In this document: positions 2,047 through 29,219 of the stretch, one piece after another
How positions within the stretch are numbered: position 1 is the first letter of the stretch
How the letters are laid out: each line of letters begins with the position of its first letter
Source: a virus
Lineage: Duplodnaviria; Caudoviricetes
Reading direction: 5' to 3' (one strand)
Virus record (IMG/VR): IMGVR_UViG_3300012953_000049
Coordinates: 1-48,345 of that record
DNA: 48,345 nucleotides
Notes under the pieces: generated by a model
What the model was told of the DNA's origin: nothing
Databases searched by the model: none
What the model saw: the letters and a program-made list of their open reading frames with translations, nothing else
Program-made: the position numbers and the translations under genes

Positions 2047-2048
2047 TT

Positions 2049-3488: not shown

Positions 3489-3498
3489 AGTAGTTCCT

Positions 3499-5054: not shown

Positions 5055-5060
5055 TTGTGA

Positions 5061-6161: not shown

Positions 6162-6162
6162 T

Positions 6163-9100
6163 TTATTGTCCTTTCCCAAAGAAACTAAAAGAAGGATTTT
6201 TCTTTATTTCAGGTAGATTTACTTTAAGAGCGCTAGTTGTAAGTGTAGGAGTCTTTTCTACTCCAAATTCCGCACCGTGCGCCAGTCCAGGTATCGGATG
6301 TCCATTAATATCTGATTTCCAATTTTGAGCAGTGCCTTCCACGAAAGTATCCTTAAGACGCTGAAAATTAAGTCTAGCCATCCAGTCTTCCTGTCCCGAT
6401 AAAGGTACTTTATCGAGTGATTTTAGCACGGGTGTATGCCTGACCTCTGGTAACCCTAACATTTTTAACTCTTTATTCCTATTCTCAAGAGCCGACAGCG
6501 AAGTTAATTGTCCTCTTAGCAACCCCTCGTCTTCAGAATTATTTCCAACGGACGTGACATCCGTCATCGCCCTGACCACTACTTCTACGTTCCTTCTTCT
6601 CCCGATCCCCGTGCTATCCATGTAAAGTTTGCCCAGCTCAGAAGTAATATGATTCCTAACTGCAGATATACTGTTAGTTATTTTTAGGATTTCATGAGGG
6701 TTCTTTCTCCCCGTGGATAATGCCTCTGCTTTTCTAACCTGAGTTCCAACTCTCACAGAAGGCAAAAGCTCATTGGTGTGCGGAACTATGTGATCTTTAT
6801 TATCAATACGCACAACTTTTCCGCCCAATGCATCTGAAGTAATCTTTTGCACAGTTCCGCTAACAGTAGATAGGGTGGCCTGCCCTCTTAGCTTTTTAGG
6901 CACCTTGAATAGGTCTTTGGCTCTTGCGTAGTAGTCATCGACTGCGCTAGTTCCTGCTCCGCCTGTGTGAAATGTTCGCATCTGCATCTGAGTTACTGGC
7001 TCTCCTAATGCATGTCCTGCGATTATTCCTATGTTAGTGCCTACTTCATAAGGCTTGCCGCGCTCACTCAAACCGTAACAGGTAGCACAAATACCATTGG
7101 ATACCTGACAATGCAGAGGAGACCTAACAAGAACTTTTTGCGGGCCGGAGTTCTTGAGCCTGGTGTGAAGGTTAGTAGTGATAAGGGTCCCTCTGGGTAT
7201 CTTATCTCCTCCCTTTAACTCTACATCTTTAGCTAAATACCTGCCCTCTATGTCGCTAACATTCGTATTTAGTAAAGATCCTCTAGTAGTGCCGCAGTCT
7301 TTTTTATCAATAGCTTGTCCTATTACGGTATTTATCAGCTCTTTAGTTAGCGCTCCCGGATCTTTGGTCCCTGCTGCACGATCTAAGGTACCTTTTCTGG
7401 CTCCGTGCAAAGAAGCCCAATATTGGGATACGGGAAGACCTTCTCCAAAAGACTTGGTCAACGGTACCGGTACCGTTCTCTTTTTAGGGTCTTGGACTAA
7501 AATAGGTCCCATTACTAATTGGCTAAATTGATTCCAGTCGGACTTTGCCCCGCTCTGTGCCCATTCCCACATTTTGTTATTGCCTAGACGGTTGTATCTC
7601 GCCTCTCCTACCGACTTTAGCTCTTCTCGGGCTTTCTGGTATAGCGTTACTATTTCCTTGTCTTTGGCTGCGCGGTTTCTCTTAGACCTCCTAATTTCTG
7701 CCTCTTTTTTCTTATACGGTTTAAGGATTTGATCTCTAATTTCTTTTCCGTCATGGAAGTCCTTTAAAGAAAAAGAACTTCCATTTGAATACGCCTGATA
7801 AAACCCTAGCTCTTTCCATTTATCGATCATTCGAGAAAATGCTTCCGGGTTACTTCTGGCTATATCGGTCGCTAATGCCTTCATGGGCTTCTTGGACATT
7901 CTATAAGAAGAGTCATGTAGGATCTTTGCATCTCCTTTAAACTCGGAGGGCAAAGAATCATTCAAGGCCAGCCTACCCGGAGTTGTCAGTTTATCCATTC
8001 CCTTTATCTTTACGACTGATGAGGATTTTAGCTTGCCTGACTTCATCTGCGCCAGGGCCTGTTCTTTAGTAAATACTCCAGACGCTCTCTTTCCCCATTT
8101 CGTGGCGTGATATAGTCCTAGTATCCCGTCTTGGCTCGGAGTCACCATGATTCCACCGTGGGTGGGAGAAAATAAGCTCTTAGAAGGCAGCATCTTGTGA
8201 AGTGCTTCGTCTTTAGCCTTTTCTGAAATTGGGACAAACAGCCCCATAGCATCGCCGTCAAAGTCCGCGTTGAATCCCCCTACGACAAGAGGGTGTACTT
8301 TTATCGATTTTCCGGTCACTAACTTAGGCTTAAACGCCATTATCCCAAACTTATGTAATGTCGGATCTCTTTTTAGCAGCACAGGCCTATCTTTTATTAC
8401 TCTCTCTAGTGCTTCCGTTGCGGATGGGTGATTCTGCTTTATCATCTTACGGGCCTGTCCTGCGCTACTTGCCCTTCCCATTCTTCTCCATAACTCTCTA
8501 ATGACGAAAGGCTTATACACCTCCATAGCTATGGGGGTAGGAACTCCTACTTCATCCATACTTAATTTAGGTTCTGGAGTGATTACGGACCGCCCCGACA
8601 AGTCTTGTCGCTTTCCCAAAACCCCTTCTTGAAAGAAAGAGTTTTTAGGCTTGGTGCCGGTTAACTTATCCATAAGGCTGGGGTACTGCTTGCCCTCTAT
8701 CTGGGCACCAGTCATTCGCAAAGCCCGAACTGCGTCATAGAGCTTTGCTTCTACATTTGCTAAGTCTTTTCCGCCTCTTCCCACCTTTTTAGCTGCCGCT
8801 AGTTCAGTGGTCATCTGCCCTACCGCTGCATACAACTGATTTAATGGGTCTATGATTTGAGTTCCATCATACCCTATACTAATTTTTCGGAGCTTAGGTG
8901 GTAGAACAGGAAGCATCTTATTAGTGTAGGCGTCTACTGGACTAATATTTAGATCTTTTAGGGCTTTAAGATATCTAACCCGTTTGTACAGCTTGTTAAG
9001 TTCGTTTTTCTTTGCGGTCTTTAACTTACTGGTTGCCTCTTTTAGCTCTTTATTGACATTAATAGAAGACAACTTCTCTTCTATCTTTTGAAAGCCTTTG

Positions 9101-12100
9101 GGGTCGTCCCCGCTAACCAATTTTTCATACTCTTTCTTGGTTACTCCAATTAAACTTTGGATAGGTCCCTCAAAAACAGGATTAGGCAAACGAGTTCCTA
9201 GATCTACATGGGTCCAGTATTGCCCGTCTATACCTCCAGTCTTTTTAAAATCAAAAAGACCGCCTTTCTCTTCCTTAGTCAAAGCGCCCTTAGCCAGAAG
9301 TGTTTTTTCTGGCATAGATAGCTTTCCATTACTTTGGGAGACTATCTGTTTGTCGGTCATCGGACTTAGTCCGTATACTCCAGCCTTTTCCTCAGTATAG
9401 ACTCCTAGCCCGCGCAGATAACGCTTGAAGTGATCCATAGATCTAGGAACTTTAGGAGTGGGAGGACGTCCGCCCTCCATAATCCTAAGCCAAACAGTTT
9501 CGGCCTGATCTTGGTCCGACTTGTATGTCTGCATCTCTCTGAGGTTATGCGACGCTCCGTGAGCCAGCAAAGCATAAGAATCCAAAGATCCAATTTTTTG
9601 CCCGCCCTTGCCTATACCAGATCCTGATATAGCTTCTCCAGAAGGCTTATAGGCATAACCAAACCCACCCGATCTTGCGGAAACTTTTTTCTCCGCCTGA
9701 TGATCGAGCTTTAGCATGTACTGAGGGCCGACCAATATTTGTCCCAGACTCTTGCCTGTCTCAGCATCGAACAGCTCTTCGGTATCACTAATCCCGTGCT
9801 TCTTTAGGTCGTCTTGGACTTTCTTTGTATAGTCTACTGTAGAGTCAAAATTCTCTACTACATATGGCTTCCCAGTTTTCTTGGCTATCTTAGCTGCAGT
9901 GGTCTCTAGCAGCTGTCCTACGTTCATTCTGGAGGGAACTCCCGCTGGGCTTAACAATACTTGGACAGCGTTTCCGCTTTTGTCTTTAGGCATTTCATCA
10001 TCAGGAAGAATCTTAGTTATAATCCCCTTGTTTCCGTGCCTTCCCGAAAGCTTGTCTCCTACTTCCATAGTCTGGTTGGTTTTTATGTAAATAGATATCT
10101 TACGTCTATTCTTTACAATCCGTACAACTTCTCCACCGTACTCATGGTTCCAGATAAGCGATTTATCCGTGTAATCTCGTATCGCTTTTTTTAGTGATTT
10201 TTGTATGTTTCTAGATTCTCTAGAAGGATCCGACTTCTGCAGTAAGGCTAGCAGCACATCTCCAGGCTGAACCTTTGTGCCTTTTTTGATAATTCCGTCT
10301 TCATCTAATGAGTTTAGCGTCTCTGCAGTTGCCTTATTTAGCCCCGCGTAAGCCCGCCACAACTTCTTGTTAACTACCACATTTGGGGTCATTAGTGCAG
10401 ACTCGACATGTAAATGCGAAGACACTAATTTTTCAGAAGCAGACTGAGATATTACAATACCGTCCTCAAAGTTGTATCCCTTATAAGGAACATAAGCCAC
10501 TCTAAGGTTAGTTCCCAGGGCCAGAGACCCCTTATTAGTAAAGTTAGAGTCCGCTAAAAGCTGACCTTTCTTTACCTGATCTCCTACTTTAACTTTTGGA
10601 GTAGAATGCATCATATGTTTCGATCCATTTAATGGATGATAATTATAGATGCTGTGTTTTATTGTCTTGCCTTGCTTAGGCTTTACCCATATTCCCTCTT
10701 CAGTAACTTTGCTAACCTTCCCCTCTATATCACTGATGGTGCTCGAAAATGTGCCCATCATCTTTTCAAAAGAGGTAGACCCCGAAGCCAAAGACTGCAC
10801 CAAAGGCTCTTCTCGATTAGTAAGTCCTACCGCTTGCTCTTGATGTTTTGCCGCCATCATAGCTCGGTTCCCGTTGTTATTCTGGACAAACGGAATCATA
10901 TTCGCACTGACGGAGAATAGGTGTTTAGCTGATGGCAGCACGTACTGAACTTCATTCCAAGAGCGCTTAGCAGTGCTTCGATCCGAATCGTAAACAACTA
11001 CCTCTTTTGCAAGAGGAGTTACCTTAAAGGTACCGTTGGAGGTTTTAGTTAGCTTAACCTGATCTGGGTAAGCCACTACCGCTCTTTCAAGCTCTGCGGA
11101 AGATTTATATACAGTCTTTCCTGTCTTTATATCAATGACTCTGGCTTTAAGAGAATGTCCCATTTTCTTACTTCCCAGAGGGACGTGAAGAGCGACACCG
11201 GTAGCTTGATTTTCAGGGGTTTGTAGAGGATCTAACAGCCCCAAATGACTGGGGTTTATAAGCTTATCCCTATCCAGGTTTATGTTGTCTCCTTTAATTC
11301 CTCCAAATGCCTGCCCTAATATGGTGGTCCTGGTGTGATTCGATATAAATTGCAGGGGGTTGGTCTGAGTAGGCAACTGAGCCTGCTTAAATACGGAAGA
11401 TATGGCCTTTCCATACCCGCTACCCGGCGCGGGTATGATGTCATCAATTCTATCTTTTCTATCTAAGTTGTTTCTGATCTTTCTTTGGAGTTCGTAAACT
11501 TTGTTTCTCTTGGTAAGAGATTCGTGAACAAAATCTTCTATTCCAAATAGTCTTTTGTTAGAGAGGGACTGCCTATCGTCTTCCTCTGCCTCGCCCTTAG
11601 AGATCCTAACTAATTTACGTGCAGAAAGAGTAAGGGCTTCACCATTTATACTTGAGAATTTCTTCCCCACGGAGGATAGCATAGTCTCGGGGTTAACTTC
11701 TGCATTGGAAAATATATCCCGTACGTACTGCCGAGCCTCTTGCAGGGACGGGGCTCGGTAGTTCTTCTTGTCTCTTCTGCCTGCTACCGCTTGGTGAAAA
11801 TCTAAAAGATCCTTGGGCTTGTATGCTGCTCTATTTATTTCAAATACTTTCTCGCCCAGCGAAGACCTAATGGTGGATTCCGAGACATTGAGGGCCAAGA
11901 GTATGCCGTAAATAGGTATTAGCCGAGTAGAGCTATCACCACTCTTGACCTTCATTCGTATAAGTCCGAGTCGTTTACCATCTCTTCGCTCGATAGCTAA
12001 ATCAAACGCACCAATCTTACTGCCGGCAGCCACATTCCACTTGGCTAACAAATCTCCATTATCCGCCTCTGCGTGATACGCTCCTGGATTGAGGCGGAAT

Positions 12101-12459
12101 ACGCCGTCTACTTGTCGCTCATTTCCGTCAACAATGTAGCTGTATCTTCTGGTTATTTTCGGCAACTGGGCCAGTGTCTTGACTTTAGTGTCGATAACCT
12201 TCCCCGAAGATACCTCTATTAGCTTGAAGTCTCCTCGTATAAGAGGGCCCCAAGTCCTGTCTTGCAACTTAGCTTCTCGCTGCTGAGTAAGATTATCAAT
12301 GTGGTGCCTGCCTTCTCGGCTCGAATCGTCCGATTCTGTCCAAAGTCTTACTAGCTCAAGCCTGTGAACTTTTCCTTTAACCGGAAAATGACTCTGGATG
12401 GCTTCTTTGGTTCGATTTTCAAGGGAGCGAAATGCGCCCTCTGGATCCAGATTAGCCAT
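6163..12459 (-). CDS. rpoBC: Single-chain DNA-directed RNA polymerase, fused beta and beta' subunits
   Basis: Beta motifs: QTNPL, HLGLLDPLQTPE, NRAMMAAKHQEQAV, GYNFEDGI, GDKLSGRHGNKG, GVPSRMNVGQ, YMLKLDH, GGQKIG. Beta' motifs: LPVLPPKLR, LGKRQDLSGRSVI, KRDPTLHK, catalytic NADFDGD (8251-8271), PSQD, bridge helix HGARKG, RSPLHC..GICATCYG, trigger loop GEPVTQMQMRTFHTGG. AGGAG RBS. Confidence 0.97.
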   Translation of the reverse strand: MANLDPEGAFRSLENRTKEAIQSHFPVKGKVHRLELVRLWTESDDSSREGRHHIDNLTQQREAKLQDRTWGPLIRGDFKLIEVSSGKVIDTKVKTLAQLPKITRRYSYIVDGNERQVDGVFRLNPGAYHAEADNGDLLAKWNVAAGSKIGAFDLAIERRDGKRLGLIRMKVKSGDSSTRLIPIYGILLALNVSESTIRSSLGEKVFEINRAAYKPKDLLDFHQAVAGRRDKKNYRAPSLQEARQYVRDIFSNAEVNPETMLSSVGKKFSSINGEALTLSARKLVRISKGEAEEDDRQSLSNKRLFGIEDFVHESLTKRNKVYELQRKIRNNLDRKDRIDDIIPAPGSGYGKAISSVFKQAQLPTQTNPLQFISNHTRTTILGQAFGGIKGDNINLDRDKLINPSHLGLLDPLQTPENQATGVALHVPLGSKKMGHSLKARVIDIKTGKTVYKSSAELERAVVAYPDQVKLTKTSNGTFKVTPLAKEVVVYDSDRSTAKRSWNEVQYVLPSAKHLFSVSANMIPFVQNNNGNRAMMAAKHQEQAVGLTNREEPLVQSLASGSTSFEKMMGTFSSTISDIEGKVSKVTEEGIWVKPKQGKTIKHSIYNYHPLNGSKHMMHSTPKVKVGDQVKKGQLLADSNFTNKGSLALGTNLRVAYVPYKGYNFEDGIVISQSASEKLVSSHLHVESALMTPNVVVNKKLWRAYAGLNKATAETLNSLDEDGIIKKGTKVQPGDVLLALLQKSDPSRESRNIQKSLKKAIRDYTDKSLIWNHEYGGEVVRIVKNRRKISIYIKTNQTMEVGDKLSGRHGNKGIITKILPDDEMPKDKSGNAVQVLLSPAGVPSRMNVGQLLETTAAKIAKKTGKPYVVENFDSTVDYTKKVQDDLKKHGISDTEELFDAETGKSLGQILVGPQYMLKLDHQAEKKVSARSGGFGYAYKPSGEAISGSGIGKGGQKIGSLDSYALLAHGASHNLREMQTYKSDQDQAETVWLRIMEGGRPPTPKVPRSMDHFKRYLRGLGVYTEEKAGVYGLSPMTDKQIVSQSNGKLSMPEKTLLAKGALTKEEKGGLFDFKKTGGIDGQYWTHVDLGTRLPNPVFEGPIQSLIGVTKKEYEKLVSGDDPKGFQKIEEKLSSINVNKELKEATSKLKTAKKNELNKLYKRVRYLKALKDLNISPVDAYTNKMLPVLPPKLRKISIGYDGTQIIDPLNQLYAAVGQMTTELAAAKKVGRGGKDLANVEAKLYDAVRALRMTGAQIEGKQYPSLMDKLTGTKPKNSFFQEGVLGKRQDLSGRSVITPEPKLSMDEVGVPTPIAMEVYKPFVIRELWRRMGRASSAGQARKMIKQNHPSATEALERVIKDRPVLLKRDPTLHKFGIMAFKPKLVTGKSIKVHPLVVGGFNADFDGDAMGLFVPISEKAKDEALHKMLPSKSLFSPTHGGIMVTPSQDGILGLYHATKWGKRASGVFTKEQALAQMKSGKLKSSSVVKIKGMDKLTTPGRLALNDSLPSEFKGDAKILHDSSYRMSKKPMKALATDIARSNPEAFSRMIDKWKELGFYQAYSNGSSFSLKDFHDGKEIRDQILKPYKKKEAEIRRSKRNRAAKDKEIVTLYQKAREELKSVGEARYNRLGNNKMWEWAQSGAKSDWNQFSQLVMGPILVQDPKKRTVPVPLTKSFGEGLPVSQYWASLHGARKGTLDRAAGTKDPGALTKELINTVIGQAIDKKDCGTTRGSLLNTNVSDIEGRYLAKDVELKGGDKIPRGTLITTNLHTRLKNSGPQKVLVRSPLHCQVSNGICATCYGLSERGKPYEVGTNIGIIAGHALGEPVTQMQMRTFHTGGAGTSAVDDYYARAKDLFKVPKKLRGQATLSTVSGTVQKITSDALGGKVVRIDNKDHIVPHTNELLPSVRVGTQVRKAEALSTGRKNPHEILKITNSISAVRNHITSELGKLYMDSTGIGRRRNVEVVVRAMTDVTSVGNNSEDEGLLRGQLTSLSALENRNKELKMLGLPEVRHTPVLKSLDKVPLSGQEDWMARLNFQRLKDTFVEGTAQNWKSDINGHPIPGLAHGAEFGVEKTPTLTTSALKVNLPEIKKNPSFSFFGKGQ

Positions 12460-12480
12460 TACAATAAACTCCTAATTTAC

Positions 12481-12487
12481 GTCATAA
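12481..12487 (+). promoter_or_regulatory. GTCATAA motif, candidate promoter element (copy 1)
   Basis: The same 7-mer occurs in all three intergenic gaps preceding plus-strand gene runs (12481, 17827, 24984). Confidence 0.4.
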
Positions 12488-12538
12488 TATTAATAGCAGA
12501 GTATATCCCGTACTTTGTGAAAAAATAAGGAGATAAAA

Positions 12539-12691: not shown

Positions 12692-12693
12692 TA

Positions 12694-12789
12694 GTGCTTC
12701 AGATAATTTTTGGGGTAGGATTCCTGATCGGGTTTCTCACGGAATTCGAGGAATATACTGATGATGTGATATACTACCTCGATGAATAA
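12694..12789 (+). CDS. 31-aa membrane-anchored acidic peptide (not in the ORF track)
   Basis: GGAGGAG RBS at 12679-12685 and GTG start. Sequence MLQIIFGVGFLIGFLTEFEEYTDDVIYYLDE. Its end overlaps the next ATG (ATGAATAA). Confidence 0.6.
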   Translation: MLQIIFGVGFLIGFLTEFEEYTDDVIYYLDE

Positions 12790-13126
12790 GAAGAAGAAGA
12801 ACGCTTTTCGAGATCGGATAATTTCCGGTCTCGAAGGGCTTTCCCCAAATACATTAGTACCCGAAACTCCGGAAACTTTTGACGAGCCGGTAAACATTGC
12901 GTACTGCCCGCTGTTGAAGGGCAAGTGTAGTAATGTCAACTGCGGAGACTGCTCCCTCATTGAGTCTTCTTTCTCGGACTATATTTGGGTGTGCAGTAAC
13001 TGCGTTCACCCAGATCTTGTTCCTTATCCTTTTTGGTCCGACGGCTGCTGCGAAGTATGCGGCTTCCGAAGTCCCGTATTAATTTTATTATCTAAACCTG
13101 CCTTGATGCATCTGCCTGAGGATTAG
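12782..13126 (+). CDS. Cys-rich putative zinc-binding protein
   Basis: 114 aa with CPLLKGKC..NCGDC, CSNC and CCEVC. Coupled to the upstream peptide and overlaps the portal gene end convergently. Confidence 0.65.
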   Translation: MNKKKKNAFRDRIISGLEGLSPNTLVPETPETFDEPVNIAYCPLLKGKCSNVNCGDCSLIESSFSDYIWVCSNCVHPDLVPYPFWSDGCCEVCGFRSPVLILLSKPALMHLPED

Positions 13127-15983: not shown

Positions 15984-15984
15984 T

Positions 15985-16755
15985 TTATAAAGTCTTTCGT
16001 TTGTCCCTCAAGTATTCAATTCCGACCATCAACTTAGCCACACATATATCTACTTGAGTCTCTTTTAAGGTAATGTCTTTGGTAAGCGCCTCAGATAGTC
16101 GCTTCTCCACCTTTGCAGTTGGGTGCTTTTTGAAGGAAACTACATTAGTTCCCTGCCCCTTACTTACTCTGTCAGGGTCTGGAGAAAAAGACAGTAAAGA
16201 CGAAGTATCGTACCTATCTACACAGTAACTACAGAGTCCGTCTACCTGCAATTCCTCTATATTACCGCAGTCTCTGCATTCTTGGCTATCGCCACAAGCG
16301 TACTTATTTGCGAAATCTAGCGGAGGAGGCAAAAACCAAATTCCAGACTCTAATGCCTGGGCGGCTACGTATCTAGCTACTTCTTCTGAAAAAGAAGGAG
16401 TCTCAGTCAACGTCTGTAAATCTTCTCTAATTGAGTTAGCAATATCTACCGCTACCATCAGTTGTCCGATGGTTTGGTTCTGTACTTGCCCTAAAGAAGG
16501 CAAATTATTGTTCAAACACTGAGAAAGAAAATGAAAGGATTCCCAATCTCTCCAGAACGAATCTCTATTGGCTACGGATATGGCGGCGAACAGTTTATTA
16601 AGATTTATCTTAGCTACTGATGTTCCAGTAGAATCTTCTATTGCCTTTCTTATTACCGTAGGCTCCCACTCCAAAGCCTCTACACCAAAAAGCTCAAGAT
16701 ACTTTCTTAGTAAGGACAGTGGATGGGTATCTTCGTTCTTGAAGATGGACATCAA
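15985..16755 (-). CDS. Hypothetical protein with CxxC...CxxC motif (head module)
   Basis: 256 aa with CRDC...CSYC. ATGA overlap with the upstream gene. Confidence 0.75.
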   Translation of the reverse strand: MMSIFKNEDTHPLSLLRKYLELFGVEALEWEPTVIRKAIEDSTGTSVAKINLNKLFAAISVANRDSFWRDWESFHFLSQCLNNNLPSLGQVQNQTIGQLMVAVDIANSIREDLQTLTETPSFSEEVARYVAAQALESGIWFLPPPLDFANKYACGDSQECRDCGNIEELQVDGLCSYCVDRYDTSSLLSFSPDPDRVSKGQGTNVVSFKKHPTAKVEKRLSEALTKDITLKETQVDICVAKLMVGIEYLRDKRKTL

Positions 16756-17786
16756 TATCCTCCGTCGTTAGTTTCTCTACTTTGGGAAGCCAATCGTGAC
16801 AGCAAAATTTGTTGCTCGAGGGGGAGGGACTTAAATAGTCCTACTGGATCTTTTCTAAACTTATTTTTAACATCGTCTGTAAATATATTGTCGGCGGCAT
16901 TAACTGCAGAGGTGCTGCCCGAGTATCTCTTCAGCATCTTCTCTGTGACATAATCTCCTCCGTGGATCCATGAATACTCGGCTTCCTTAGTTGTGCCGAA
17001 TACGGACAACACTGGATTTGGGAGATTTTCGCCATATCTATTAGTTAATCCTGCTTGCTCGTCTAGTAAATACAGGGCCTCTACTACTTCATACTCTGGC
17101 ATAGAGTCCGCCATCTTACTCAGTCGGTCATAGCCTTCTTGCAGCTTAGTATCCGCAGTATAGTTTTTTCTATAGCTGGCTACCTTCTTGAAATTCGTAC
17201 TGAGTCCTTCTCCACTGTACTCGTATATATGATCGGGAATATCCATCCCGGCCACTTTAGACAGCCCCACTAAATCCACTGAAATGTCTCTCTTATCGTA
17301 AGGATCTAACTCGTCCCAATTACGGATAGCTAACGCTAAGGCGTCATATGCTGAGGCTGTTTTTACTGAATCTGGAGTATTTCTGGAAAAATTTCGCCCG
17401 CCAGCAGCTACTCTTCTTTCGTCTATAGTTTCCTTTGGATCTTCCGGAAGCCTAGATAGATAAGAGGTGGCTGGGTTTAGGGATATTCCAAATTCATCGG
17501 CGGCATCAACTAGATTAGTAGCGGCTGTCTTGATGGCAGAACTGCTCAATGAATGATTAGCATTAAGGAGATACCACTCAGACATTAGAATGTTGCCCTC
17601 GTCGTAACAAGCAAACTTTCTATGCTCCGCTCCATTTTCTTCCACTAAAATTAAAGCTACATCCCTGTCTAACAGCTCTGCCTTTTCTCTCCACTCTGCC
17701 TTTTTAAATATTTCGCTAGAGGCGGCAGAGGCATTCTTTACTAAAAAGGCCTCACATAGGTCATCGTGGTGATCAATTACTTTCAT
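16752..17786 (-). CDS. Helical putative head/scaffold-associated protein rich in K-x-A motifs
   Basis: 344 aa with GGAG RBS. Motifs VKNAS, FKKAE, IKTAA, VKTAS, SKVAG, KKVAS, SKMAD, TKEAE. Confidence 0.75.
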   Translation of the reverse strand: MKVIDHHDDLCEAFLVKNASAASSEIFKKAEWREKAELLDRDVALILVEENGAEHRKFACYDEGNILMSEWYLLNANHSLSSSAIKTAATNLVDAADEFGISLNPATSYLSRLPEDPKETIDERRVAAGGRNFSRNTPDSVKTASAYDALALAIRNWDELDPYDKRDISVDLVGLSKVAGMDIPDHIYEYSGEGLSTNFKKVASYRKNYTADTKLQEGYDRLSKMADSMPEYEVVEALYLLDEQAGLTNRYGENLPNPVLSVFGTTKEAEYSWIHGGDYVTEKMLKRYSGSTSAVNAADNIFTDDVKNKFRKDPVGLFKSLPLEQQILLSRLASQSRETNDGGY

Positions 17787-17907
17787 ATTTTACTCCGGAG
17801 CGATTATGCAGAATCTATCATAGTCTGTCATAAGGATACAGGACCGTATAGCTAATATTACACTACACTAAAAACATAATAAAATGTAAAAAAGGAGATT
17901 ATAATAA
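17787..17907. promoter_or_regulatory. Divergent AT-rich control region between virion and replication blocks; GTCATAA at 17827-17833
   Basis: Non-coding gap between divergently oriented operons, with an RBS on each side. Confidence 0.65.
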
Positions 17908-18324
17908 TTGTCAAATTCTTTTAGTCAACGATTCGGGGGACACTCCCGAAGGGAATCTAGTAAGCCTGAATGTTACGGGGATCCGGACTACTACGAAGGG
18001 GACGACCCTCAATGCAGGGCATGTCCGGTCCAAAGCACTTGCCGAGTAGTATCGGAAAAACGAGCCAGATCCCACAACGAAAGGCACAATAGTCCGGTGA
18101 CCATACGAGAGCCCAGAGCAATCCAAAGAAAATCAAGAGCAGAGGCGAGCAGAGGTATAGAAGACTACGAAGAAGGAGATACGTGGTTTTCTGCGTTGGT
18201 ACACAACGCCTGTATTGAGGGAATCACGGCAGGGGCCAAAACAGCTGTGGATGCGCTAGAGTCTATACCAAAGAAAAGGTATCCTAATCCCTTTGCCCCG
18301 AGAAAAAAGAGAGATAAAATTTGA
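17908..18324 (+). CDS. Cys-cluster hypothetical protein
   Basis: AAGGAG RBS and TTG start. CYG...CRACPVQSTC metal-binding pattern. Confidence 0.75.
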   Translation: MSNSFSQRFGGHSRRESSKPECYGDPDYYEGDDPQCRACPVQSTCRVVSEKRARSHNERHNSPVTIREPRAIQRKSRAEASRGIEDYEEGDTWFSALVHNACIEGITAGAKTAVDALESIPKKRYPNPFAPRKKRDKI

Positions 18325-19697
18325 TAGGAAACATCAATAGCTTAATGGAAGGGACCGTTTATAAAGAGCGGTCCCTTTTCCTACCTAGAGACTTAGTGCC
18401 AGAATCTTTGCTGAAAGGCTCTCTTCGTTTTGGAGAGTTTCCTGACGGCACTCCTAGAGTTTTGGTAAAAGAACATAAGAATCATTTTGAAGTGCCTCTT
18501 GAATCTTTTACTGATGAACAACTAAAGGGCTTTGGAAGTTCCACTATAATAGATCTACGCCCCAAAGAGTTCCGCCAAATAAATCTAAAAGCTAAAGATT
18601 GTTTCGAGCTACGAGAAAACCAACGAGAAGCTTGGGGAGCTTTTGCAGCAACAAAAAAAGGAATTTTAAACTTGGCGTGTGGAAAAGGGAAAACTATTTT
18701 AGGGTGGCTAAAAGCTGCCCACGAAAAAGTTCCTACACTAATTGTATCCCCACAAAAAGCGCACCTTGAGAACTGGCTATCAGAACTCGAAGCATTCTTT
18801 GATTTTGAAGGCGAAACCGGTTGGATACAGGGTAAACGATTCGATGTAGAATCTGATATTTGTTTTGCAACTATACAGACCCTGGCTCGTAGATCAGAAG
18901 AAGGAAAGCTACCCAAAGAGTTTTTCGAAAACTTCGGATTAATCATATATGACGAATGTCACTGTATGGCTGCTGACATGTTTTCTAAAGCAGCAGATAT
19001 TGGTCTTGGTATACGGATTGGACTATCGGCTACCCCCAACAGAACCGACAGGAATGAGGGGATATTCTTGTCTCATTTAGGTCCTATATTCTACACCGAC
19101 CTAAGCCAAGACCTAAGCCCAACTGTTAATGTAGTGGAGACGGGGCTGTTTTTTAGGGATAAGCAGCTGAGATCTATGCACGATCGATCAGGGCAACTTA
19201 ATGTGGGCTTAATGAGGCAAGAATTAGCTAGACACTCTGCTAGGAACGACGTCATCCATTCGGTAATACGCTGGGGCTTAGCGCAAGGCAGAACACTATA
19301 CGTCCTCTCTCACTCCGTAGAGCACGTCGAGTATCTGCACGAAGTGTACCCAGACAGTACGATGATTCACGGAAAGGTTAAATCTTCTGAAAGGCTGGAG
19401 CGCTTACATGGCTCTAAATTGGTATTCGCCACTGTAGGGGTAGGCAAAGAAGCGTATAATCGTAAAGATTTAGATACCCTTCTTTTGGTAACGCCATTCG
19501 CGGCAAAAAGCCACTCCGCCATAACCTTTCAGCAAAGTGTTGGCAGAATACAGAGAAAGCATCCCGGTAAGAAGCACCCAATGGTGTTTCTGTTTCTAGA
19601 CTCCAACTTGGAGATGTGCAGGGGCATGATTTACTCGCTAATACGGGAATCAAAGAAACAGGGATTTGAGGTCAAAAAGAACTGGAGACCTAATTAA
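18321..19697 (+). CDS. Superfamily 2 DNA helicase (UvsW/XPB-like)
   Basis: Q motif LRENQ, Walker A ACGKGKT, DECH, motif III SAT, motif VI QSVGRIQR. Confidence 0.9.
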   Translation: MIGNINSLMEGTVYKERSLFLPRDLVPESLLKGSLRFGEFPDGTPRVLVKEHKNHFEVPLESFTDEQLKGFGSSTIIDLRPKEFRQINLKAKDCFELRENQREAWGAFAATKKGILNLACGKGKTILGWLKAAHEKVPTLIVSPQKAHLENWLSELEAFFDFEGETGWIQGKRFDVESDICFATIQTLARRSEEGKLPKEFFENFGLIIYDECHCMAADMFSKAADIGLGIRIGLSATPNRTDRNEGIFLSHLGPIFYTDLSQDLSPTVNVVETGLFFRDKQLRSMHDRSGQLNVGLMRQELARHSARNDVIHSVIRWGLAQGRTLYVLSHSVEHVEYLHEVYPDSTMIHGKVKSSERLERLHGSKLVFATVGVGKEAYNRKDLDTLLLVTPFAAKSHSAITFQQSVGRIQRKHPGKKHPMVFLFLDSNLEMCRGMIYSLIRESKKQGFEVKKNWRPN

Positions 19698-19711
19698 ATT
19701 GGAGGAACTAC

Positions 19712-20434
19712 ATGGTAGGCAAAGAAGCCCTGCGGCTTCTGTATGAAGAACACCGTAACTGCGACAAATGTACTCTGTTATGCGAAAGTCGGCTTCAGCC
19801 CGTTTTTGGGTCTGGAAGCGCATCGGCAGATATTGTCTTTGTAGGTGAAAGCCCTGGAGAACAGGAAGACGAAGAAAACGAAACGCTGATGGGGAAATCC
19901 GGAAGACTACTCCTGCAGCTATTCGATATGTCCTGGCCGAATCTAGAAAGATTGTCGGAACTCAGAGAAATACAAGACAATGAAAGATACTTTGCCTCCC
20001 TAAAAGACTTTCTAGAGGAATACGTATTTTTTACTAATACAATCTTGTGTCGTTCCGCTGAGAATAGAACTCCCTCAAAGGAAGAAATAAAAAACTGCCG
20101 AACTCGCCTCGAGAATACGATATACGCAATAGATCCTCTATTAGTAATAGCAGCGGGCAAAACTGCTGCGACTACCTTACTAGGAAAAAATGTATCGATT
20201 CTAGACAAGAGGGGCACGATTTTCGATATATCCGTGACATCTCCATCGACAGGTAAAAAAGTTAGGTACCCGATGTTGGCAATTCTTTCTCCGTCTTATT
20301 TGTTAAGAAAGGGGGACAAGTCTCTGGTACGTCAGGGGCAGGGAGACACATACTCTACAATTCAAGATCTAAAATACGGTCTTGACTTAATCACGAAACA
20401 CTACGAACTTACACGGCCTAACTTTGGGCTGTAG
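19712..20434 (+). CDS. Uracil-DNA glycosylase, family 4 (Fe-S type)
   Basis: CDKCTL..SR.QPVFGSG, VFVGESPGEQED, FTNTILCR..NRTP..EEI..C. Confidence 0.9.
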   Translation: MVGKEALRLLYEEHRNCDKCTLLCESRLQPVFGSGSASADIVFVGESPGEQEDEENETLMGKSGRLLLQLFDMSWPNLERLSELREIQDNERYFASLKDFLEEYVFFTNTILCRSAENRTPSKEEIKNCRTRLENTIYAIDPLLVIAAGKTAATTLLGKNVSILDKRGTIFDISVTSPSTGKKVRYPMLAILSPSYLLRKGDKSLVRQGQGDTYSTIQDLKYGLDLITKHYELTRPNFGL

Positions 20435-20443
20435 GGGGATTTC

Positions 20444-20863
20444 ATGAGTGCAGAAAAATTAGTTGGAATAAATCGACAAATTAGCCTTTTATGGGAAGAC
20501 CTAGAGTCCACCATGCCTGCGGAAGTTTCTAGGCTTAGAGAGTTAATGGTGGAGAAGAAGTCTATTATAAATGAGGCTAAGTCAGAGCTTAGAGGTCTCG
20601 GGGTGGGGTCTCATCAAATTTCGGGGTATAGATTTGAAGTTCAGGGAGGAAAACCAAAGAAGACTTTTGACGTGGCAGACGTAATCGAAACTGCAGAAGA
20701 GCTAGGTCAGACAGAAAAACTAATCAAATATGGCTTTCTGGATTACTCAGTTAACGTAAATCAGCTCGACCGCCTCCCGACAGAACTCAAAGTTGTTTAC
20801 GAGGAACTAGCTACAGAAAAAGCGTCAACTACTAGGGTAATAATACCCAAGGACTTACAGTGA
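20444..20863 (+). CDS. Hypothetical protein
   Basis: 139-aa ORF in operon with a GGGGG RBS. Confidence 0.7.
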   Translation: MSAEKLVGINRQISLLWEDLESTMPAEVSRLRELMVEKKSIINEAKSELRGLGVGSHQISGYRFEVQGGKPKKTFDVADVIETAEELGQTEKLIKYGFLDYSVNVNQLDRLPTELKVVYEELATEKASTTRVIIPKDLQ

Positions 20864-21189
20864 TAGTCGGTACTGTAAAGGGGTCGGCGCGCAATGGGAC
20901 CGAAAGTTTTTCTCTTGATGATATAGTTTTAGCGGAGGATTTACACTTGGCTTCTAATGAAATACAAGATCTTGTAGGTGATGGAAATGCAAAGGTTTCT
21001 GTTGGATTGGGGATGTCTAACAAGGACTATGGAAACGGTTATGATGTCCATGTGACTGTAACATTGTCTTGCTCTCAGGACAGAGAGATTGTAGGCTATG
21101 CCTATGATGCCGCAAGCGACCTAGCGTCATCTATCTGCAGAGATGCCTATAACAAAATGACAGCTCTATATGGAGAGGCCTCGTCGTAA
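20860..21189 (+). CDS. Hypothetical protein
   Basis: 109 aa, GTGA overlap with the upstream gene. Confidence 0.7.
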   Translation: MIVGTVKGSARNGTESFSLDDIVLAEDLHLASNEIQDLVGDGNAKVSVGLGMSNKDYGNGYDVHVTVTLSCSQDREIVGYAYDAASDLASSICRDAYNKMTALYGEASS

Positions 21190-21461
21190 TGAAGACAGAG
21201 GTTGATGTACAGGTGCGCCAAATATCATGGACGCCAGCGTCCGGCGCTTTAGAGGTTTACTATGAAATAGTTATAGAAAACACAACGTTTTCTGGCAGCA
21301 TAGCTGCCGGCAAAACAAGCGTTAGCGCGGAAAGCACAGTTCTTTTAGCCGAAGAGCTGACCACCTCCGTATTAGCTGCCATAAAAGCAGACTTAGGCTT
21401 AGAAAATAACGAAGACCTTGGGTCTTCCCTTTTAGATGACGATACGGAGGATCCCCTTTAA
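21189..21461 (+). CDS. Hypothetical acidic protein
   Basis: 90 aa, TAATG coupling, acidic C-terminus DDDTEDPL. Confidence 0.7.
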   Translation: MKTEVDVQVRQISWTPASGALEVYYEIVIENTTFSGSIAAGKTSVSAESTVLLAEELTTSVLAAIKADLGLENNEDLGSSLLDDDTEDPL

Positions 21462-22865
21462 ATGGCGCACCCAGAAATAGAACTTATCAGTAATATCGTA
21501 GAATCTGGGGACTTTACCTCAATTAAAAGAAAAGGTGTTACGCCAGACTTCTTTAGGATGACAGATACTAAAGAAATATTTAGATGGCTCTGGGATCAAT
21601 TCCATGATCCGCAACATCGAGGCGAGGTACCTACTGTTGATAGGCTCCAAAGAAAGTTCCCTGACTTTGACTTCTCTCCGTCTAGAAATTCTATTTACGC
21701 CTTAATTTCCGAGATCAAAAAGGAATCTATACAAATAGAATTAAACGATATAGTGGGTGGAATCGCGGAGGCCCTTCACGAAGATGAGGATCCGTCCTGC
21801 ATTCTTGATTCTTTTCTACCTAAATTTCGTCGCCTAAATCTAGAAAGCCACTCAGATGAGGGGGTACTGATTAGCAACGCCGCTGAAATTATTCGGCAAG
21901 AATATGAGACGCAAAAAACTCATGGCGGTGTGGTGGGAATTCCGTATCCATGGGATGTTCTTAATCGACAAACTGGGGGCATGAGGGATGAGGAATTTAT
22001 CGTAATTTACGGTAGGCCGGGAAATATGAAGACATGGCTTTTGTGCGCTATGGCGGCCCACGCCTACGAATGCAATAAAAGAGTCATGGTGTTTAGCAAA
22101 GAGATTAACACGCAGGCGATTCTTACCCGAATTGCTTCAGTCCTAACGGGTGTGGATTACGGGGATCTAAAACGAGGAACTCTAAGTCCAGAAGACGAGC
22201 AATATGTAAACGACTACTTAGAGTCTATGGAAAAGGCGGAAGAACTAGATTCTAAGAGCGGACACAGAAGAGCCTTACTAAGTGTCTCGGATAAAGGTAA
22301 ACGACGAGCGTCTAGCGTCGAAGACTTAATCGCCGTTGCAGAACGGTTTGAACCAGACGTTATTTTCGTAGATGGCCTATACCTTATGAGAGATAGTCGA
22401 TCCGGGTCAAAGACTGTGGACTGGAAACAAATATCTCACATCTCTCAGGATTTGAAGGGCATGGCACAATATCTTCAGTGTCCCGTTGTTGGTACGACCC
22501 AAGCTAATAGGCAAAATGCCAAAAACCCTACGGGAGATCTTGACGATCTATCCTACTCAGACGGACTGGGGCAAGATGCAGACGTTGCTTTTCGGGCGTT
22601 TAGAGGTCCTCATCCTTCAGGTTCCGGCGCAACGCTCATGCTAGTGTTCTCCAAAGTCCGTGAGGCGATCGTACGCCCGTTTGTTATTAATGCAAATCCT
22701 GGAGGAGACTTTTCCGTGTTACACCGGAGCGTTAATATAAAAAGCTTCTTAGAAGAAAAATCCAGAATGGAAACTTCAGAAGGACAGCAAATGGTAGCAG
22801 GAGGAGATAATTCTGTTGGAGTCCAAAAACGTCCAAAGAAAAGGGCGAACCCTTTTAGGGACTAG
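21462..22865 (+). CDS. dnaB: Replicative DnaB-like helicase
   Basis: GIPYPWDVLNRQTGG, Walker A GRPGNMKT, FSKE, VIFVDGLYLM, QANR, YSDGLGQDADV, KVRE. Confidence 0.9.
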   Translation: MAHPEIELISNIVESGDFTSIKRKGVTPDFFRMTDTKEIFRWLWDQFHDPQHRGEVPTVDRLQRKFPDFDFSPSRNSIYALISEIKKESIQIELNDIVGGIAEALHEDEDPSCILDSFLPKFRRLNLESHSDEGVLISNAAEIIRQEYETQKTHGGVVGIPYPWDVLNRQTGGMRDEEFIVIYGRPGNMKTWLLCAMAAHAYECNKRVMVFSKEINTQAILTRIASVLTGVDYGDLKRGTLSPEDEQYVNDYLESMEKAEELDSKSGHRRALLSVSDKGKRRASSVEDLIAVAERFEPDVIFVDGLYLMRDSRSGSKTVDWKQISHISQDLKGMAQYLQCPVVGTTQANRQNAKNPTGDLDDLSYSDGLGQDADVAFRAFRGPHPSGSGATLMLVFSKVREAIVRPFVINANPGGDFSVLHRSVNIKSFLEEKSRMETSEGQQMVAGGDNSVGVQKRPKKRANPFRD

Positions 22866-23817
22866 CATATTAGAGGTATATCAGAAATACATATCGGGGC
22901 TTAGGGCAGGGAGTGGAAACAACTACACAGGGTACTGCCCTATACACGGAGAAACTCCAGGAAAAAGTTCTCCAAGCATATCTATAAATGCGGAAACAGG
23001 TCAGTGGTATTGCTTTGCGGGTTGTGGGGGAGGCTCTCTTAAATCCTTTCTTCGGGAGGTAGAAAGCCCTACAAAAAGCGAGCAAATACTGTCTAGCGTG
23101 CACATGCCGAAAAAGAGGAGAGTTGCTGACCTAGACGAGGAGGCTTATCGGGAGGTGGTTCTTCCTGAAAAAATCTTAGGGGTATTCGACTCCTGCCCAA
23201 CCTCATTAGTAGACTCAGGGTTTAGTTGGAGAACTCTACAGCAAAATGATGTAGGGTTCGACGCAGATCTGTCTAGAATAACTTTTCCGGTTCGAAACAG
23301 AAACGGGGAGTTAGTAGGAATTGTCGGCCGGACACTACACGTAAAGTTCGGAGGAAAGTATAAAGTTTATACTCGGGAGTTTCTAAAGTTTGGGTATAAC
23401 GTAAAGTCGTTTAGAAAAGGTAATTACTTATGGAGGGAGGATAAGGTACACAGTATAGCTTCGCATAGCGAGGCCAGGCCTACTATATATGTGGTGGAGG
23501 GATTTAAAGCAGCTCTCTGGCTGGTTCAAGCCGGTCTAGAGACTACTGTTGCCCTTATGGGCAGTAGCATGTCCCTTGAACAAAAAAAGAAACTAGAAAG
23601 GTTCGGCGGTCGAATTGTTCTCTGCCTAGATAATGATGCGGCGGGAAGAAAGGCCACAATAAAGATTGCCGGACAGTTGAAGTCCTCAAGAGTTTCCGTG
23701 GCAGTATTGCCTGATGAAGCTCAACAACCGGACTATTTATCAGAAGGAGAAATACTAGATGTGTGTTTCTCCCCAATATCAGTGACGCAAGCGTCAATAA
23801 AATGGAGAAAAGCGTGA
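22816..23817 (+). CDS. dnaG: DNA primase (CHC2 zinc finger plus TOPRIM); start uncertain
   Basis: CPIH...WYCFAGC, RITFPVRN..G..VG..GR, VVEGF, DNDAAGRKA. Confidence 0.9.
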   Translation: MESKNVQRKGRTLLGTSILEVYQKYISGLRAGSGNNYTGYCPIHGETPGKSSPSISINAETGQWYCFAGCGGGSLKSFLREVESPTKSEQILSSVHMPKKRRVADLDEEAYREVVLPEKILGVFDSCPTSLVDSGFSWRTLQQNDVGFDADLSRITFPVRNRNGELVGIVGRTLHVKFGGKYKVYTREFLKFGYNVKSFRKGNYLWREDKVHSIASHSEARPTIYVVEGFKAALWLVQAGLETTVALMGSSMSLEQKKKLERFGGRIVLCLDNDAAGRKATIKIAGQLKSSRVSVAVLPDEAQQPDYLSEGEILDVCFSPISVTQASIKWRKA

Positions 23818-24968
23818 AGAAAGCATCATTTACGGCACAAAGATCCTCTCGAGCAAAGAAGCCTAGAAGAAAAAGTAACGGCTGGTCCGCAAAATGGTCC
23901 GACAGAGTCGGAGTCAAAGAAGGACAGTCCGCATGGGTTTTGCTGACCCCCGGTAATTACCTTACAGCAGAGCAACAGCCAGCAGATTGGTATGAATGTA
24001 CTCGGTTTAATGTAAAGTACATGAAGACCATGAAAGACGGGTCTAAGAGGCAAGTGTTCGAGTCATGCACACCCAACGAGGGTGAGTGTACTTTGACTAC
24101 TCAGGCTATGGCAGGACATTCTGCCATATCGGGCATACCTAGAAACGATGAGCCTAATCGGTTTTTCATGAACTGCATAGAGTTCGGAGTAAACCAGAAA
24201 GAGGTTGTTACAGATAGAGACGGAAACCCTCTTCGATACCAACACGGGAAGATGAAGGGAGAGGAAATCTTTAGATGGAACAAAATAACTAGCATCAGGG
24301 AGCGCAAAGCAGCTATCCAAAACGAAGACCCAGAAAACGTTTCATTCTGGAGAAAGAAGTTCTTCGACCTCCCTCCTACACATTTTAATGTACTTCGTGA
24401 GATTGCTAGAAAGGCCAAAAAGATGTGCCTTTGCGGCGGTACGCTCCAGCCAGTGCACTATGTGTGTAGTCATTGCGGAGAAACTCTTCTTGATATAGAC
24501 CACACAGATCTAAGTGAGTCTGAGGTCAGCCGATTTGGTGATCAGGAAATTAGATGTGATGGATGCGGTGCGTATGATTTGCCGCTGGCGGAAACTGAAT
24601 GCGATTCTTGTGACACTCCACGGCCCCATAAGTTCCACGAAGTCGTGGCAGAGATTCAGAAAACTATAGGCGATAAGGGGTTTCCTCAACTAGTCCTATC
24701 TAGGGTAGAAAGTCTTTCCGATTTCAAGACTGCCGACGGACAGTTTGTGGTTGTGCGGGACGAAAATAATCAACCTTTGATTGACGATGAGGATCCTGAT
24801 TTCAGATTTGTAGTCGATGAGAAGTTGGAAAAGCTAATGAAGTCTCAGTTTGATTTCGAACTTTACACTGAGCCCCAGGCCAACAGCTACTACAGCGAAA
24901 TTTTGGGACTTAGAGAAGGTCAACTAGGCTACGTGAGTGATTCCAAGCCATATACCTCTTTTAGATAA
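23814..24968 (+). CDS. Zn-rich replication protein, candidate ssDNA-binding protein
   Basis: Likely GTG start at 23814 (GTGA overlap, GGAG RBS). Contains CLCG, CSHC, CDGC and CDSC. Lies between primase and polymerase and is followed by a terminator. The SSB call is positional inference only. Confidence 0.5.
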   Translation: MKKASFTAQRSSRAKKPRRKSNGWSAKWSDRVGVKEGQSAWVLLTPGNYLTAEQQPADWYECTRFNVKYMKTMKDGSKRQVFESCTPNEGECTLTTQAMAGHSAISGIPRNDEPNRFFMNCIEFGVNQKEVVTDRDGNPLRYQHGKMKGEEIFRWNKITSIRERKAAIQNEDPENVSFWRKKFFDLPPTHFNVLREIARKAKKMCLCGGTLQPVHYVCSHCGETLLDIDHTDLSESEVSRFGDQEIRCDGCGAYDLPLAETECDSCDTPRPHKFHEVVAEIQKTIGDKGFPQLVLSRVESLSDFKTADGQFVVVRDENNQPLIDDEDPDFRFVVDEKLEKLMKSQFDFELYTEPQANSYYSEILGLREGQLGYVSDSKPYTSFR

Positions 24969-24983
24969 TCGCGTCTGAATTGG

Positions 24984-24990
24984 GTCATAA
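24984..24990 (+). promoter_or_regulatory. GTCATAA motif (copy 3)
   Basis: Intergenic, immediately upstream of the hairpin and polA. Confidence 0.35.
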
Positions 24991-24991
24991 C

Positions 24992-25028
24992 AATGATGGG
25001 CGGAGATTATCTCCGCCCATCATTTTTT
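24992..25028 (+). terminator. Intrinsic terminator-like hairpin
   Basis: AATGATGGGCGGAGA-tta-TCTCCGCCCATCATT perfect 15-bp stem running into a T tract. Confidence 0.85.
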
Positions 25029-25029
25029 A

Positions 25030-27441: not shown

Positions 27442-27665
27442 TGTGGCACCAATCAGAAGGACAGGGGGCTAGAAAGAAGTCTAATAGTTTAGTAGGCACA
27501 GTAGTAAACATATTAAGCTTAGACGGCATTACTACTAAGGGATCGATGTCAGGAACTCTGCTAGAGATAAGCGAAAACGGAGTACTTATTAGGACTGACC
27601 GAGGGGAGCTTTTGTTCTCTACCTCATGTGCGGTCAGTCTCCGCGCTGACTCGGGAGAAATATGA
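27441..27665 (+). CDS. Small beta-barrel protein (Sm/SH3-like, tentative)
   Basis: LVGTVVNILSLDG...SGTLLEISENGVLI pattern. TAATG coupling. Confidence 0.5.
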   Translation: MWHQSEGQGARKKSNSLVGTVVNILSLDGITTKGSMSGTLLEISENGVLIRTDRGELLFSTSCAVSLRADSGEI

Positions 27666-27946
27666 CTCACAAAGAGATAGTAAAGGAACTGTCCAAAAGA
27701 ACTGGAGTGCCTTCTTCGACAATTTCCTATATTCTGGACGTGCACGGTCAAATAGTGACAGAATGCTTGGTCCGACAAGAAACGGTGCAAATACGAGATG
27801 TTTGTAAGATAAGTTCTACGATGCGCAAACAAAACGTAATGGTACCTGAAACAAAAGCTAGGGCAGTAGAGAGGTCCATCAGATTAGGCATTCGACCTAC
27901 GAAAGAGTTTAGAAAGGTCCTAAATCGATGGAAAAGTACGCTGTAG
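27662..27946 (+). CDS. HU/IHF-like DNA-binding protein
   Basis: MTHKEIVKELSKRTG...ETVQIRDVCKI...RPTKEFRKVLN matches the HU fold layout. Confidence 0.8.
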   Translation: MTHKEIVKELSKRTGVPSSTISYILDVHGQIVTECLVRQETVQIRDVCKISSTMRKQNVMVPETKARAVERSIRLGIRPTKEFRKVLNRWKSTL

Positions 27947-29218: not shown

Positions 29219-29219
29219 G

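Follow-up and report, generated by a model that had tools for sequence, protein, structure and literature searches.

A single-chain beta-beta' RNA polymerase encoded beside the portal gene in a family of tailed phages, and its predicted phage-encoded sigma partner

The IMG/VR virus record IMGVR_UViG_3300012953_000049 (Duplodnaviria; Caudoviricetes) is a linear record of 48,345 nucleotides, estimated to represent ~26% of a phage genome and analysed here at its full length as "the window". Among its virion genes is a single open reading frame (ORF) of 2098 amino acids (aa), P0001, which carries the subunits beta and beta' of a bacterial-type RNA polymerase (RNAP) joined in one chain. The question raised by this locus is when during infection, with which partners and from which promoters such an enzyme might work. 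The initial annotation had pictured a minimised polymerase that is packaged in the virion, is possibly independent of alpha and sigma, and is injected to transcribe early genes. We judge it reasonably, if not strongly, probable that an injected one-chain core, probably lacking alpha, works together with a phage-encoded FliA-like sigma factor and starts at a sigma28-like promoter to transcribe the early genes and those for replication. A wider version of this proposal, offered more tentatively, is that a widespread phage family, so far undescribed, injects a bacterial-type holoenzyme simpler than any other known, consisting of one core chain and one FliA-like sigma without alpha, omega or the beta' zinc-binding domain. 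This holoenzyme would read its own sigma28-like promoter and ignore rifampicin, and it would set the timing of the infection by occupying early promoters which overlap two starts, that of the polymerase gene itself and that of the virion operon.

The single chain and its phylogenetic placement

P0001 is read without interruption from 12459 to 6163 on the minus strand, and the plus strand of this interval is riddled with stop codons; the position first assigned to the gene was right and its strand is corrected here to minus. Its Pfam domains follow each other as Rpb2 domains and then Rpb1 domains, and a profile of 49 family members (out of 97 proteins of 2030-2170 aa) aligns residues 39-1342 of E. 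coli beta with P0001 residues 2-1027 and E. coli beta' with residues ~1029-2095, both with probability 100, the two halves meeting without an added linker. The earlier description of one ORF with ordered RpoB and then RpoC motifs, readily alignable to cellular enzymes, is borne out by these alignments and by matches to the rpoB (E 1e-109) and rpoC (E 1e-159) models; the top matches are to NCBIfam beta/beta' models (RpoBC fusions), far under cut-off. P0001 belongs among the two-barrel RNAPs of cellular type, with the NADFDGD triad, the beta lysines, the bridge helix, the trigger loop (Q1824, H1831) and the second zinc site all in place, and the equivalents of the catalytic D460/D462/D464, of R425 and of beta D814, K1065, K1073 and R1106 are invariant in 32/32 family rows of the alignment.

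An assembly artefact is ruled out as the source of the fusion. Contig X3, which comes from a separate study, covers the gene and differs by 734 substitutions over 9.4 kb, while of its indels the 12 shown (8 more are not shown) all lie outside the polymerase gene; pieces from X2 and X4 likewise cross the beta-beta' junction, and X1, possibly the source sample, was left out of this check. A protein search gave 2634 scored matches among 7976 candidates, and among the 120 homologs listed 96 are 2030-2170 aa long, with identities of 39-98%; a polymerase 98% identical to P0001 is encoded on a contig of 112 kb. The gene is full-length in 15 of 17 viral loci, with the portal gene upstream wherever the neighbourhood was visible and in the subset that was re-run. 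A cellular or prophage origin was also considered and set aside, no relative having been confirmed in a GTDB scan that was limited to six peptide patterns. The best-matching sequencing runs carry marine or seawater labels, and no RNA run is listed among the holders of the sequence.

The best matches among cultured phages are the Vibrio phages D69, D181 and D148 and the Salmonella phage Arash; in Arash and D69 the portal gene is followed by a small gene and by the gene for a 1525-aa chain that unites beta with half of beta', a further chain of ~600 aa being encoded later. A catalytic-motif scan of viral contigs located at least 120 loci, 80 of them with flanks, which comprise 53 with one chain, 15 of the Arash type (beta running on into only the first half of beta', the remainder being separate), 7 with separate subunits, 3 with only a weak beta' match and 2 cut by the contig end; the scan pattern was derived from P0001 itself, and these shares are biased to its kin. 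One small clade holds a single-chain form (L084), an Arash-type split (L071) and a fully re-split form with separate beta pieces and beta' (L072). Many family members are longer, at 2350-3600 aa (L069, L092, L099, L119 and P0036-P0119), and several of the proteins listed bear intein or homing-endonuclease Pfam domains.

For phylogenetic analysis, 73 rows (25 single-chain, 7 Arash-type, 1 re-split and 7 two-chain phage enzymes, 29 bacteria and 4 archaea) were compared over 663 beta and 635 beta' columns, with branch support expressed throughout as SH-like values or as SH-aLRT (approximate likelihood-ratio test) values. When the halves were tested in this way against bacterial clades, both fell outside Bacteria: in the beta tree, the beta' tree and the concatenation the 33 family rows group together, Bacteria being monophyletic and separate from them (SH-aLRT 100 and 100), and Bacteria form their own clade (SH-aLRT 99-100) within which the P0001 family is not nested. 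In the beta half, the family group including its deepest member is supported at just 0.57. Several of the rows are unusual in composition and sit on long branches. An LG+C20 tree of a 39-row subset gave 99 each for the family, for Bacteria and for all phage enzymes together. The last of these groupings received 0.98, 0.98 and 99 in three trees and 22.5 (SH-aLRT) in one. Two-chain phage enzymes of matching size, which stand in here for mReC, the phage polymerases surveyed by Weinheimer and Aylward in 2020 (PMC7481178), join the family in one phage clade in three of four trees and do so without support in the fourth. Arash-type splits sit within the single-chain forms at two or more points of the trees, so that full fusion is probably the family's ancestral state. 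The cellular RpoBC fusions of Helicobacter and Wolbachia also carry beta and then beta' in one chain, but they are ~2900 aa long, are nested in Bacteria (Helicobacter, L214) and keep the zinc domain and the alpha and sigma contacts; the P0001 fusion is independent of them.

The enzyme had been called minimised and ~650 aa shorter than that of E. coli. It is shorter, with gaps of 12 residues or more against E. coli that total 642 residues, but the description is overstated, as 480 of these residues make up six inserts that 11-19 of the 29 sampled bacteria also lack; because the compact bacteria in the sample total ~2400 aa for beta plus beta', the true reduction is nearer 300 residues. The published mReC enzymes are equally small, at about 1000 + 900 aa in two chains (PMC7481178). 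The beta half is without E. coli beta 1-34 and the inserts 228-348, 935-1046 and 1125-1178, and the beta' half is without E. coli beta' 65-99 (the N-terminal zinc-binding domain), 143-177 and the 941-1129 insert. Beta 1-34, beta' 65-99 and beta' 143-177 are losses unique with respect to the 29 bacteria, and the cysteines of the zinc-binding domain are present in 0/32 family rows versus 29/29 bacteria.

A phage sigma factor and a promoter-like motif

As initially annotated, no alpha or sigma gene was found in the window by Pfam and profile searches, and omega was not named in a Pfam scan of the 34 window proteins, but with a window of ~26% of the genome a missing sigma means little. In a set of 17 IMG/VR records, made up of 16 relatives and the record of the window itself, the sigma factor gp10 of Arash as query detected orthologs in 6 (E 1e-19 to 1e-24), which are 6/6 of the records of 78 kb or more and 0/11 of the shorter ones; a sigma of this type is also encoded by both cultured relatives. 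The orthologs are 269-277 aa long, with FliA/WhiG as the best family in both of those scanned, and they score below all curated cut-offs except that for Pfam region 3; a structure model of one of them (pLDDT 90) matches the sigma chains of solved holoenzymes, and the gp10-type family is large, with 765 clusters at E 1e-10. With Pfam Sigma70_r2 the sigma went undetected in each of 18 IMG/VR records, the matches to Sigma70_r4 were all sub-threshold, and the RpoS-like sigma of D69 (gp196 type) as query had no match in the 17 records. Alpha was found in none of 20 records with PF01000, and neither alpha (PF01193) nor omega in any of 5 records; search controls were detected in 14/14 genomes, and Arash and D69 were searched whole, no IMG/VR record being 90% complete. 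The suggested independence of sigma is not supported: 6/6 close relatives of at least 78 kb encode the FliA-like gp10 ortholog and carry a sigma28-like promoter motif.

This motif, GTCATAA, is new here. It has the layout (T/A)AAA-N14/15-GTCATAA-N6-T-purine, which is close to that of the E. coli sigma28 consensus, TAAAGTTT-n11-GCCGATAA (PMC2859248), and it precedes the replication operon, the DNA polymerase gene and a dense cluster of small genes. Two relatives (G002 and G010) together have 36 copies where 9.5 would be expected on both strands, and the non-virion strand carries 33/36 of them. Of these 36 sites, 21 are preceded at 13-16 nt by a (T/A/G)AAA box (background 1.9%) and 28 are followed by a T-purine step 6-8 nt downstream (background 26%). 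In DNA alignments, TTATGAC is conserved before the polymerase gene (11/12, with one TTATGGC) and before the virion operon (11/11), and all 4 GTCATAA copies in the window share the non-virion polarity, 3 of them in intergenic gaps. At more distant family loci, CTTAT occurs near the polymerase start on the coding strand in 28/56 and on the other strand in 0/56, random windows giving a mean of 3.6 and a maximum of 11. Arash has a related motif, GGTATAAR, 24 times in the 114 of 181 kb scanned, 23 of them on the non-virion strand; among the sites are divergent ones immediately ahead of the genes for the portal and gp216. We infer that GTCATAA is the promoter of the phage sigma.

We rejected a reading of TTATGAC as a virion-strand late promoter, as the conserved upstream box and the start step fit only the other strand and because in Arash, too, the motif ahead of annotated genes has this polarity. 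When 12400-13150 was scanned for sigma70 promoters, 1 site emerged, the same as in shuffles. The sole virion-strand GGTATAAG site seen in Arash (L026 11588, plus strand) precedes gp9 and the sigma gene gp10, an arrangement which suggests that gp10 might promote its own synthesis. At 17810-17850 of the window the phage motif is overlapped, on the virion (minus) strand, by a sigma70-like GTGCTA-N17-TATACT (several relatives have TATAAT), which is a candidate for a late or host-read promoter. Within a few bases of the GTCATAA element that precedes the DNA polymerase gene, a terminator-like hairpin with a T run begins downstream (24991-25030).

The proposed mechanism and its competitors

In the mechanism that we propose, the polymerase chain would be made late, together with the virion proteins, and then packed; core and phage sigma would be injected into the host, where the pair would bind the GTCATAA motif and transcribe the non-virion genes, and the core would assemble probably without alpha. 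It is a further speculation that the holoenzyme might initially hold the late genes off, since the divergent early promoters to which it would bind overlap two starts, that of the polymerase gene and that of the virion operon.

The alpha independence of the polymerase is plausible, being suggested by the fusion together with the loss of alpha-contact residues, as in the alpha-less enzymes of jumbo phages. Alpha-side residues are kept at G1215 in 3/32, at R1216 in 1/32 and at D1084 in 1/32 family rows, compared with 29/29, 23/29 and 29/29 bacteria, and the G1215 position is a proline in 25/32 family rows; a literature search on D1084A/G1215D returned nothing relevant. In the rifampicin pocket, H526 is kept in 0/32 rows and S531 is a threonine in 30/32, and the polymerase is predicted to be insensitive to rifampicin.

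Packaging can be approached through Arash, in whose virion proteome gp206 was the most-detected protein with 3516 spectra and 128 peptides, ahead of the major capsid protein (1333 spectra), gp216 (1210) and the sigma gp10 (467); in the available part of the virion protein table, the second Arash sigma, gp196, is absent between gp194 and gp197 (PMC10585845). Because the Arash ortholog tops this proteome, P0001 is likely to be packed into its virion as well. The initial view of a virion-packaged, early-transcribing enzyme is in this way supported indirectly, by the Arash proteome and by the conserved order of portal and RNAP genes.

A number of observations weigh against the proposed mechanism. 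The Arash virions came from a single sucrose gradient, 116/252 proteins were detected in them, including primase and ligase, the authors allow for carry-over, and the mass-spectrometry database held phage proteins only, so that host alpha was undetectable (PMC10585845). Arash is only ~31% identical, with its enzyme in two pieces, and there is no Lys-x-Ala head-processing motif on the polymerase. The contact of alpha R45 with G1215 and R1216 exists in E. coli and is missing in B. subtilis too (PMC13202282), which makes its loss weak evidence, and the alpha-facing segments are still alignable (MP..D..G at 823-829; D.TG at 898-902). No sigma gene was seen in the window's own contig (26% complete), where TTATGAC is moreover at chance level (4 seen, 5.5 expected). 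A start with a ribosome site lies downstream of 25/40 motif sites (background 23%) and of 18/40 in the other direction, and the Arash motif was not shown in 47 kb of D69 (1 and 1 sites).

The alternative that survives best, although we consider it unlikely, is a hybrid host-phage enzyme in which the single chain is packaged or made as proposed, yet needs the host alpha dimer and perhaps omega for folding or activity. The alignable alpha-facing beta segments would fit such a hybrid. The fused cellular polymerases of Helicobacter retain alpha. The Arash proteome could not have revealed host proteins (PMC10585845). The hybrid is disfavoured by the proline at G1215 and the losses of D1084 and R1216, by the jumbo-phage two-barrel enzymes, which function without alpha and omega (PMC7598289), and by the consideration that a packaged enzyme acting at entry would need to strip alpha from host cores.

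Less likely again is a non-virion enzyme that is made after infection for middle or late genes, with the Arash signal explained as carry-over of an abundant protein. The low-stringency preparation with its many enzymes, the option raised by the authors themselves (PMC10585845) and the lack of a head-processing motif on the polymerase all leave room for it, but gp206 exceeds even the major capsid protein in spectra, 3516 vs 1333 (PMC10585845), the gene lies beside the portal gene on the virion strand in 15/15 full-length close loci and in Arash and D69, and the phage motif is directed into replication genes, not virion genes.

It is improbable that the phage sigma and the GTCATAA motif serve the host core while the phage enzyme relies on a different factor or on different promoters. 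Among phages that have no polymerase, many do redirect the host core with their own sigma (PMC7598289, PMC7824862), and the clamp-helix residues R275, E295 and A302, which are required for sigma70 binding (PMC8321222), are kept in 0/32, 2/32 and 12/32 family rows, R275 and E295 each being present in 29/29 bacteria. However, the clamp helices and flap tip are still there in P0001, the phage sigma is itself divergent and occurs in all 6 large and both cultured relatives, and gp10 stands in the Arash virion list alongside the core (PMC10585845). That the chain initiates alone, without alpha or sigma, as the sigma-less window and the lost sigma70 contacts might suggest, is very improbable in view of the sigma gene in 6/6 larger relatives and in the Arash virion list and of the bipartite, sigma-type motif.

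Related systems and neighbouring genes

The closest described relatives, Arash (OQ632216, PMC10585845: gp206 of 1525 aa plus gp216, sigma gp10) and D69/D148/D181, fall in the same clade as P0001 (SH-aLRT 99-100). They share with its family the fusion across the beta-beta' junction, the upstream portal gene, the absence of the beta' zinc-binding domain, the gp10-type sigma and, for Arash, the related promoter motif; Arash and D69 differ in that beta' is split after its catalytic half, leaving the separate chain of ~600 aa, in an identity of ~31%, and in a second sigma (gp196 type) that was not found in the 17 IMG/VR records. P0001 fits this Arash-type family of portal-linked fused polymerases by its fusion, zinc loss, upstream portal gene and gp10-type sigma, the sigma being seen in its relatives only. 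The P0001 enzyme would act in the manner of a virion RNA polymerase, and its place is with gp206/gp216 of Arash. The Arash paper labels gp206 "beta", and its available text makes no mention of "fused", "promoter" or "rifampicin" (PMC10585845).

The mReC polymerases are likewise readily alignable, deep-branching phage beta/beta' enzymes of small total size outside the cellular clades (PMC7481178), and P0001 resembles them in coming from a tailed phage, in matching cellular beta/beta' profiles and in having NADxDGD; the capsid (PF07068/VOG11186) and terminase (VOG01069) markers of mReC phages were not identified among the window genes, the relatives not having been searched. The 104 phage rows consulted in the survey table all list two proteins, where P0001 is one, and the main text of the survey does not mention sigma, alpha or the virion (PMC7481178). 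The sampled two-chain phage enzymes mostly keep the zinc-binding domain (5/7), unlike the P0001 family. The virion RNAPs of the jumbo phages phiKZ and AR9 are also two-barrel enzymes that are packaged for early transcription without alpha or omega, but are split into about five subunits, are accompanied by a second, non-virion enzyme and have no recognisable sigma gene (PMC7598289, PMC7824862). P0001 departs from this type by its single chain and by the sigma gene of its relatives. Further single-chain two-barrel phage enzymes are the crAss-like RNAP, YonO and the tail-tape-fused RNAP of P23-45; the crAss-like RNAP is packaged in the virion and that of P23-45 is virion-borne. Unlike P0001, these three are too divergent for cellular profiles (PMC7481178).

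Our literature search, with subscription journals and bioRxiv supplements mostly outside its coverage, turned up no account of this fusion, of the family or of its promoter, and the family apparently escaped a survey in whose tables beta and beta' stand as two proteins (PMC7481178). If the proposal is true, a recognisable bacterial-type core assembles and uses a sigma70-family factor without alpha, omega and the zinc-binding domain, and what these three are needed for can be put to a direct test. A holoenzyme of just two proteins, reading an orthogonal promoter, would offer a simple model enzyme and might also be useful as a tool for expression; the predicted promoter provides a concrete in vitro template and Arash a cultured relative. 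A lineage outside all sampled bacteria also bears on the early evolution of RNA polymerases.

Features of the window discussed in the text (coordinates in window positions)
Feature	Position	Strand	Basis or remark
Single-chain beta-beta' RNA polymerase, 2098 aa (P0001)	6163..12459	-	ORF, Pfam, profile alignment
Beta half, residues ~1-1025; flap-tip region retained	9385..12459	-	profile alignment
Beta' half, residues ~1029-2098	6166..9375	-	profile alignment
Catalytic NADFDGD motif, residues 1397-1403	8251..8271	-	sequence
Baseplate spike-like protein, 408 aa	3828..5054	-	Phage_base_V / gpV-VgrG type
GTCATAA element facing away from polymerase gene, 21 nt from its ATG	12481..12487	+	
Small cysteine-rich ORF, 114 aa, antisense between portal and polymerase	12782..13126	+	conserved; without Pfam family
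Portal protein, 667 aa	13092..15095	-	31% identity to Arash gp204 (annotated portal); Atlas features nearest portal clusters
First gene of virion-strand operon, 344 aa, four Lys-x-Ala motifs	16752..17786	-	sequence motifs
GTCATAA element into replication operon, divergent over virion-operon head	17827..17833	+	11/11 aligned sequences
Replication/recombination operon: SF2 helicase, UDG, DnaB, primase, PolA, HU, RecA, nucleases	17908..32607	+	Pfam
GTCATAA element in gap before DNA polymerase gene	24984..24990	+	same place in relative G002

The window is laid out with its replication operon on the plus strand and its virion genes on the minus strand (see the table above), and the polymerase gene sits between the portal gene upstream and the spike-like gene downstream, the flanking genes having been correctly recognised from the outset, as the match to Arash gp204 and the Phage_base_V family attest. 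The replication operon is the predicted target of the GTCATAA promoters, and the element nearest the polymerase gene is predicted to be a phage early promoter. Downstream of it lies the small cysteine-rich ORF, whose 8 cysteines are invariant in 12/12 aligned sequences; as a substitute for the lost zinc domain this ORF has no support beyond adjacency. An acidic ORF of ~50 aa lies between the cysteine-rich ORF and the promoter-like element.

The 344-aa product of the first virion-operon gene is likely to be a head-internal protein. Repeated Lys-x-Ala motifs, candidate prohead-protease sites, are found in several virion-strand proteins (window 1-6179 and 15096-17786), with 4 in the 344-aa gene and 3 in a 494-aa fragment, and are almost missing from the replication proteins. 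As a packaging signal on the polymerase Lys-x-Ala was rejected, with 2/58 C-terminal tails against 1.2 expected. The C-terminus of the polymerase in close relatives (window 6166-6260, minus strand) is a proline-rich tail closed by a Phe-rich motif such as FSFF, a possible packaging signal or membrane anchor.

Two very long virion-strand ORFs of 2859 and 1718 aa, at 32661-41240 and 42024-47180 (minus strand), had no family match above cut-off and are likely to be tail or fibre proteins. In a relative that is 98% identical (L001), the 372-aa gene that follows the polymerase appears as a 163-aa ORF at 16281-16772, and a stretch like the middle of the 372-aa gene is found near 20434-20778 (within 20348-22321), in what appears to be a modular reshuffling among head proteins.

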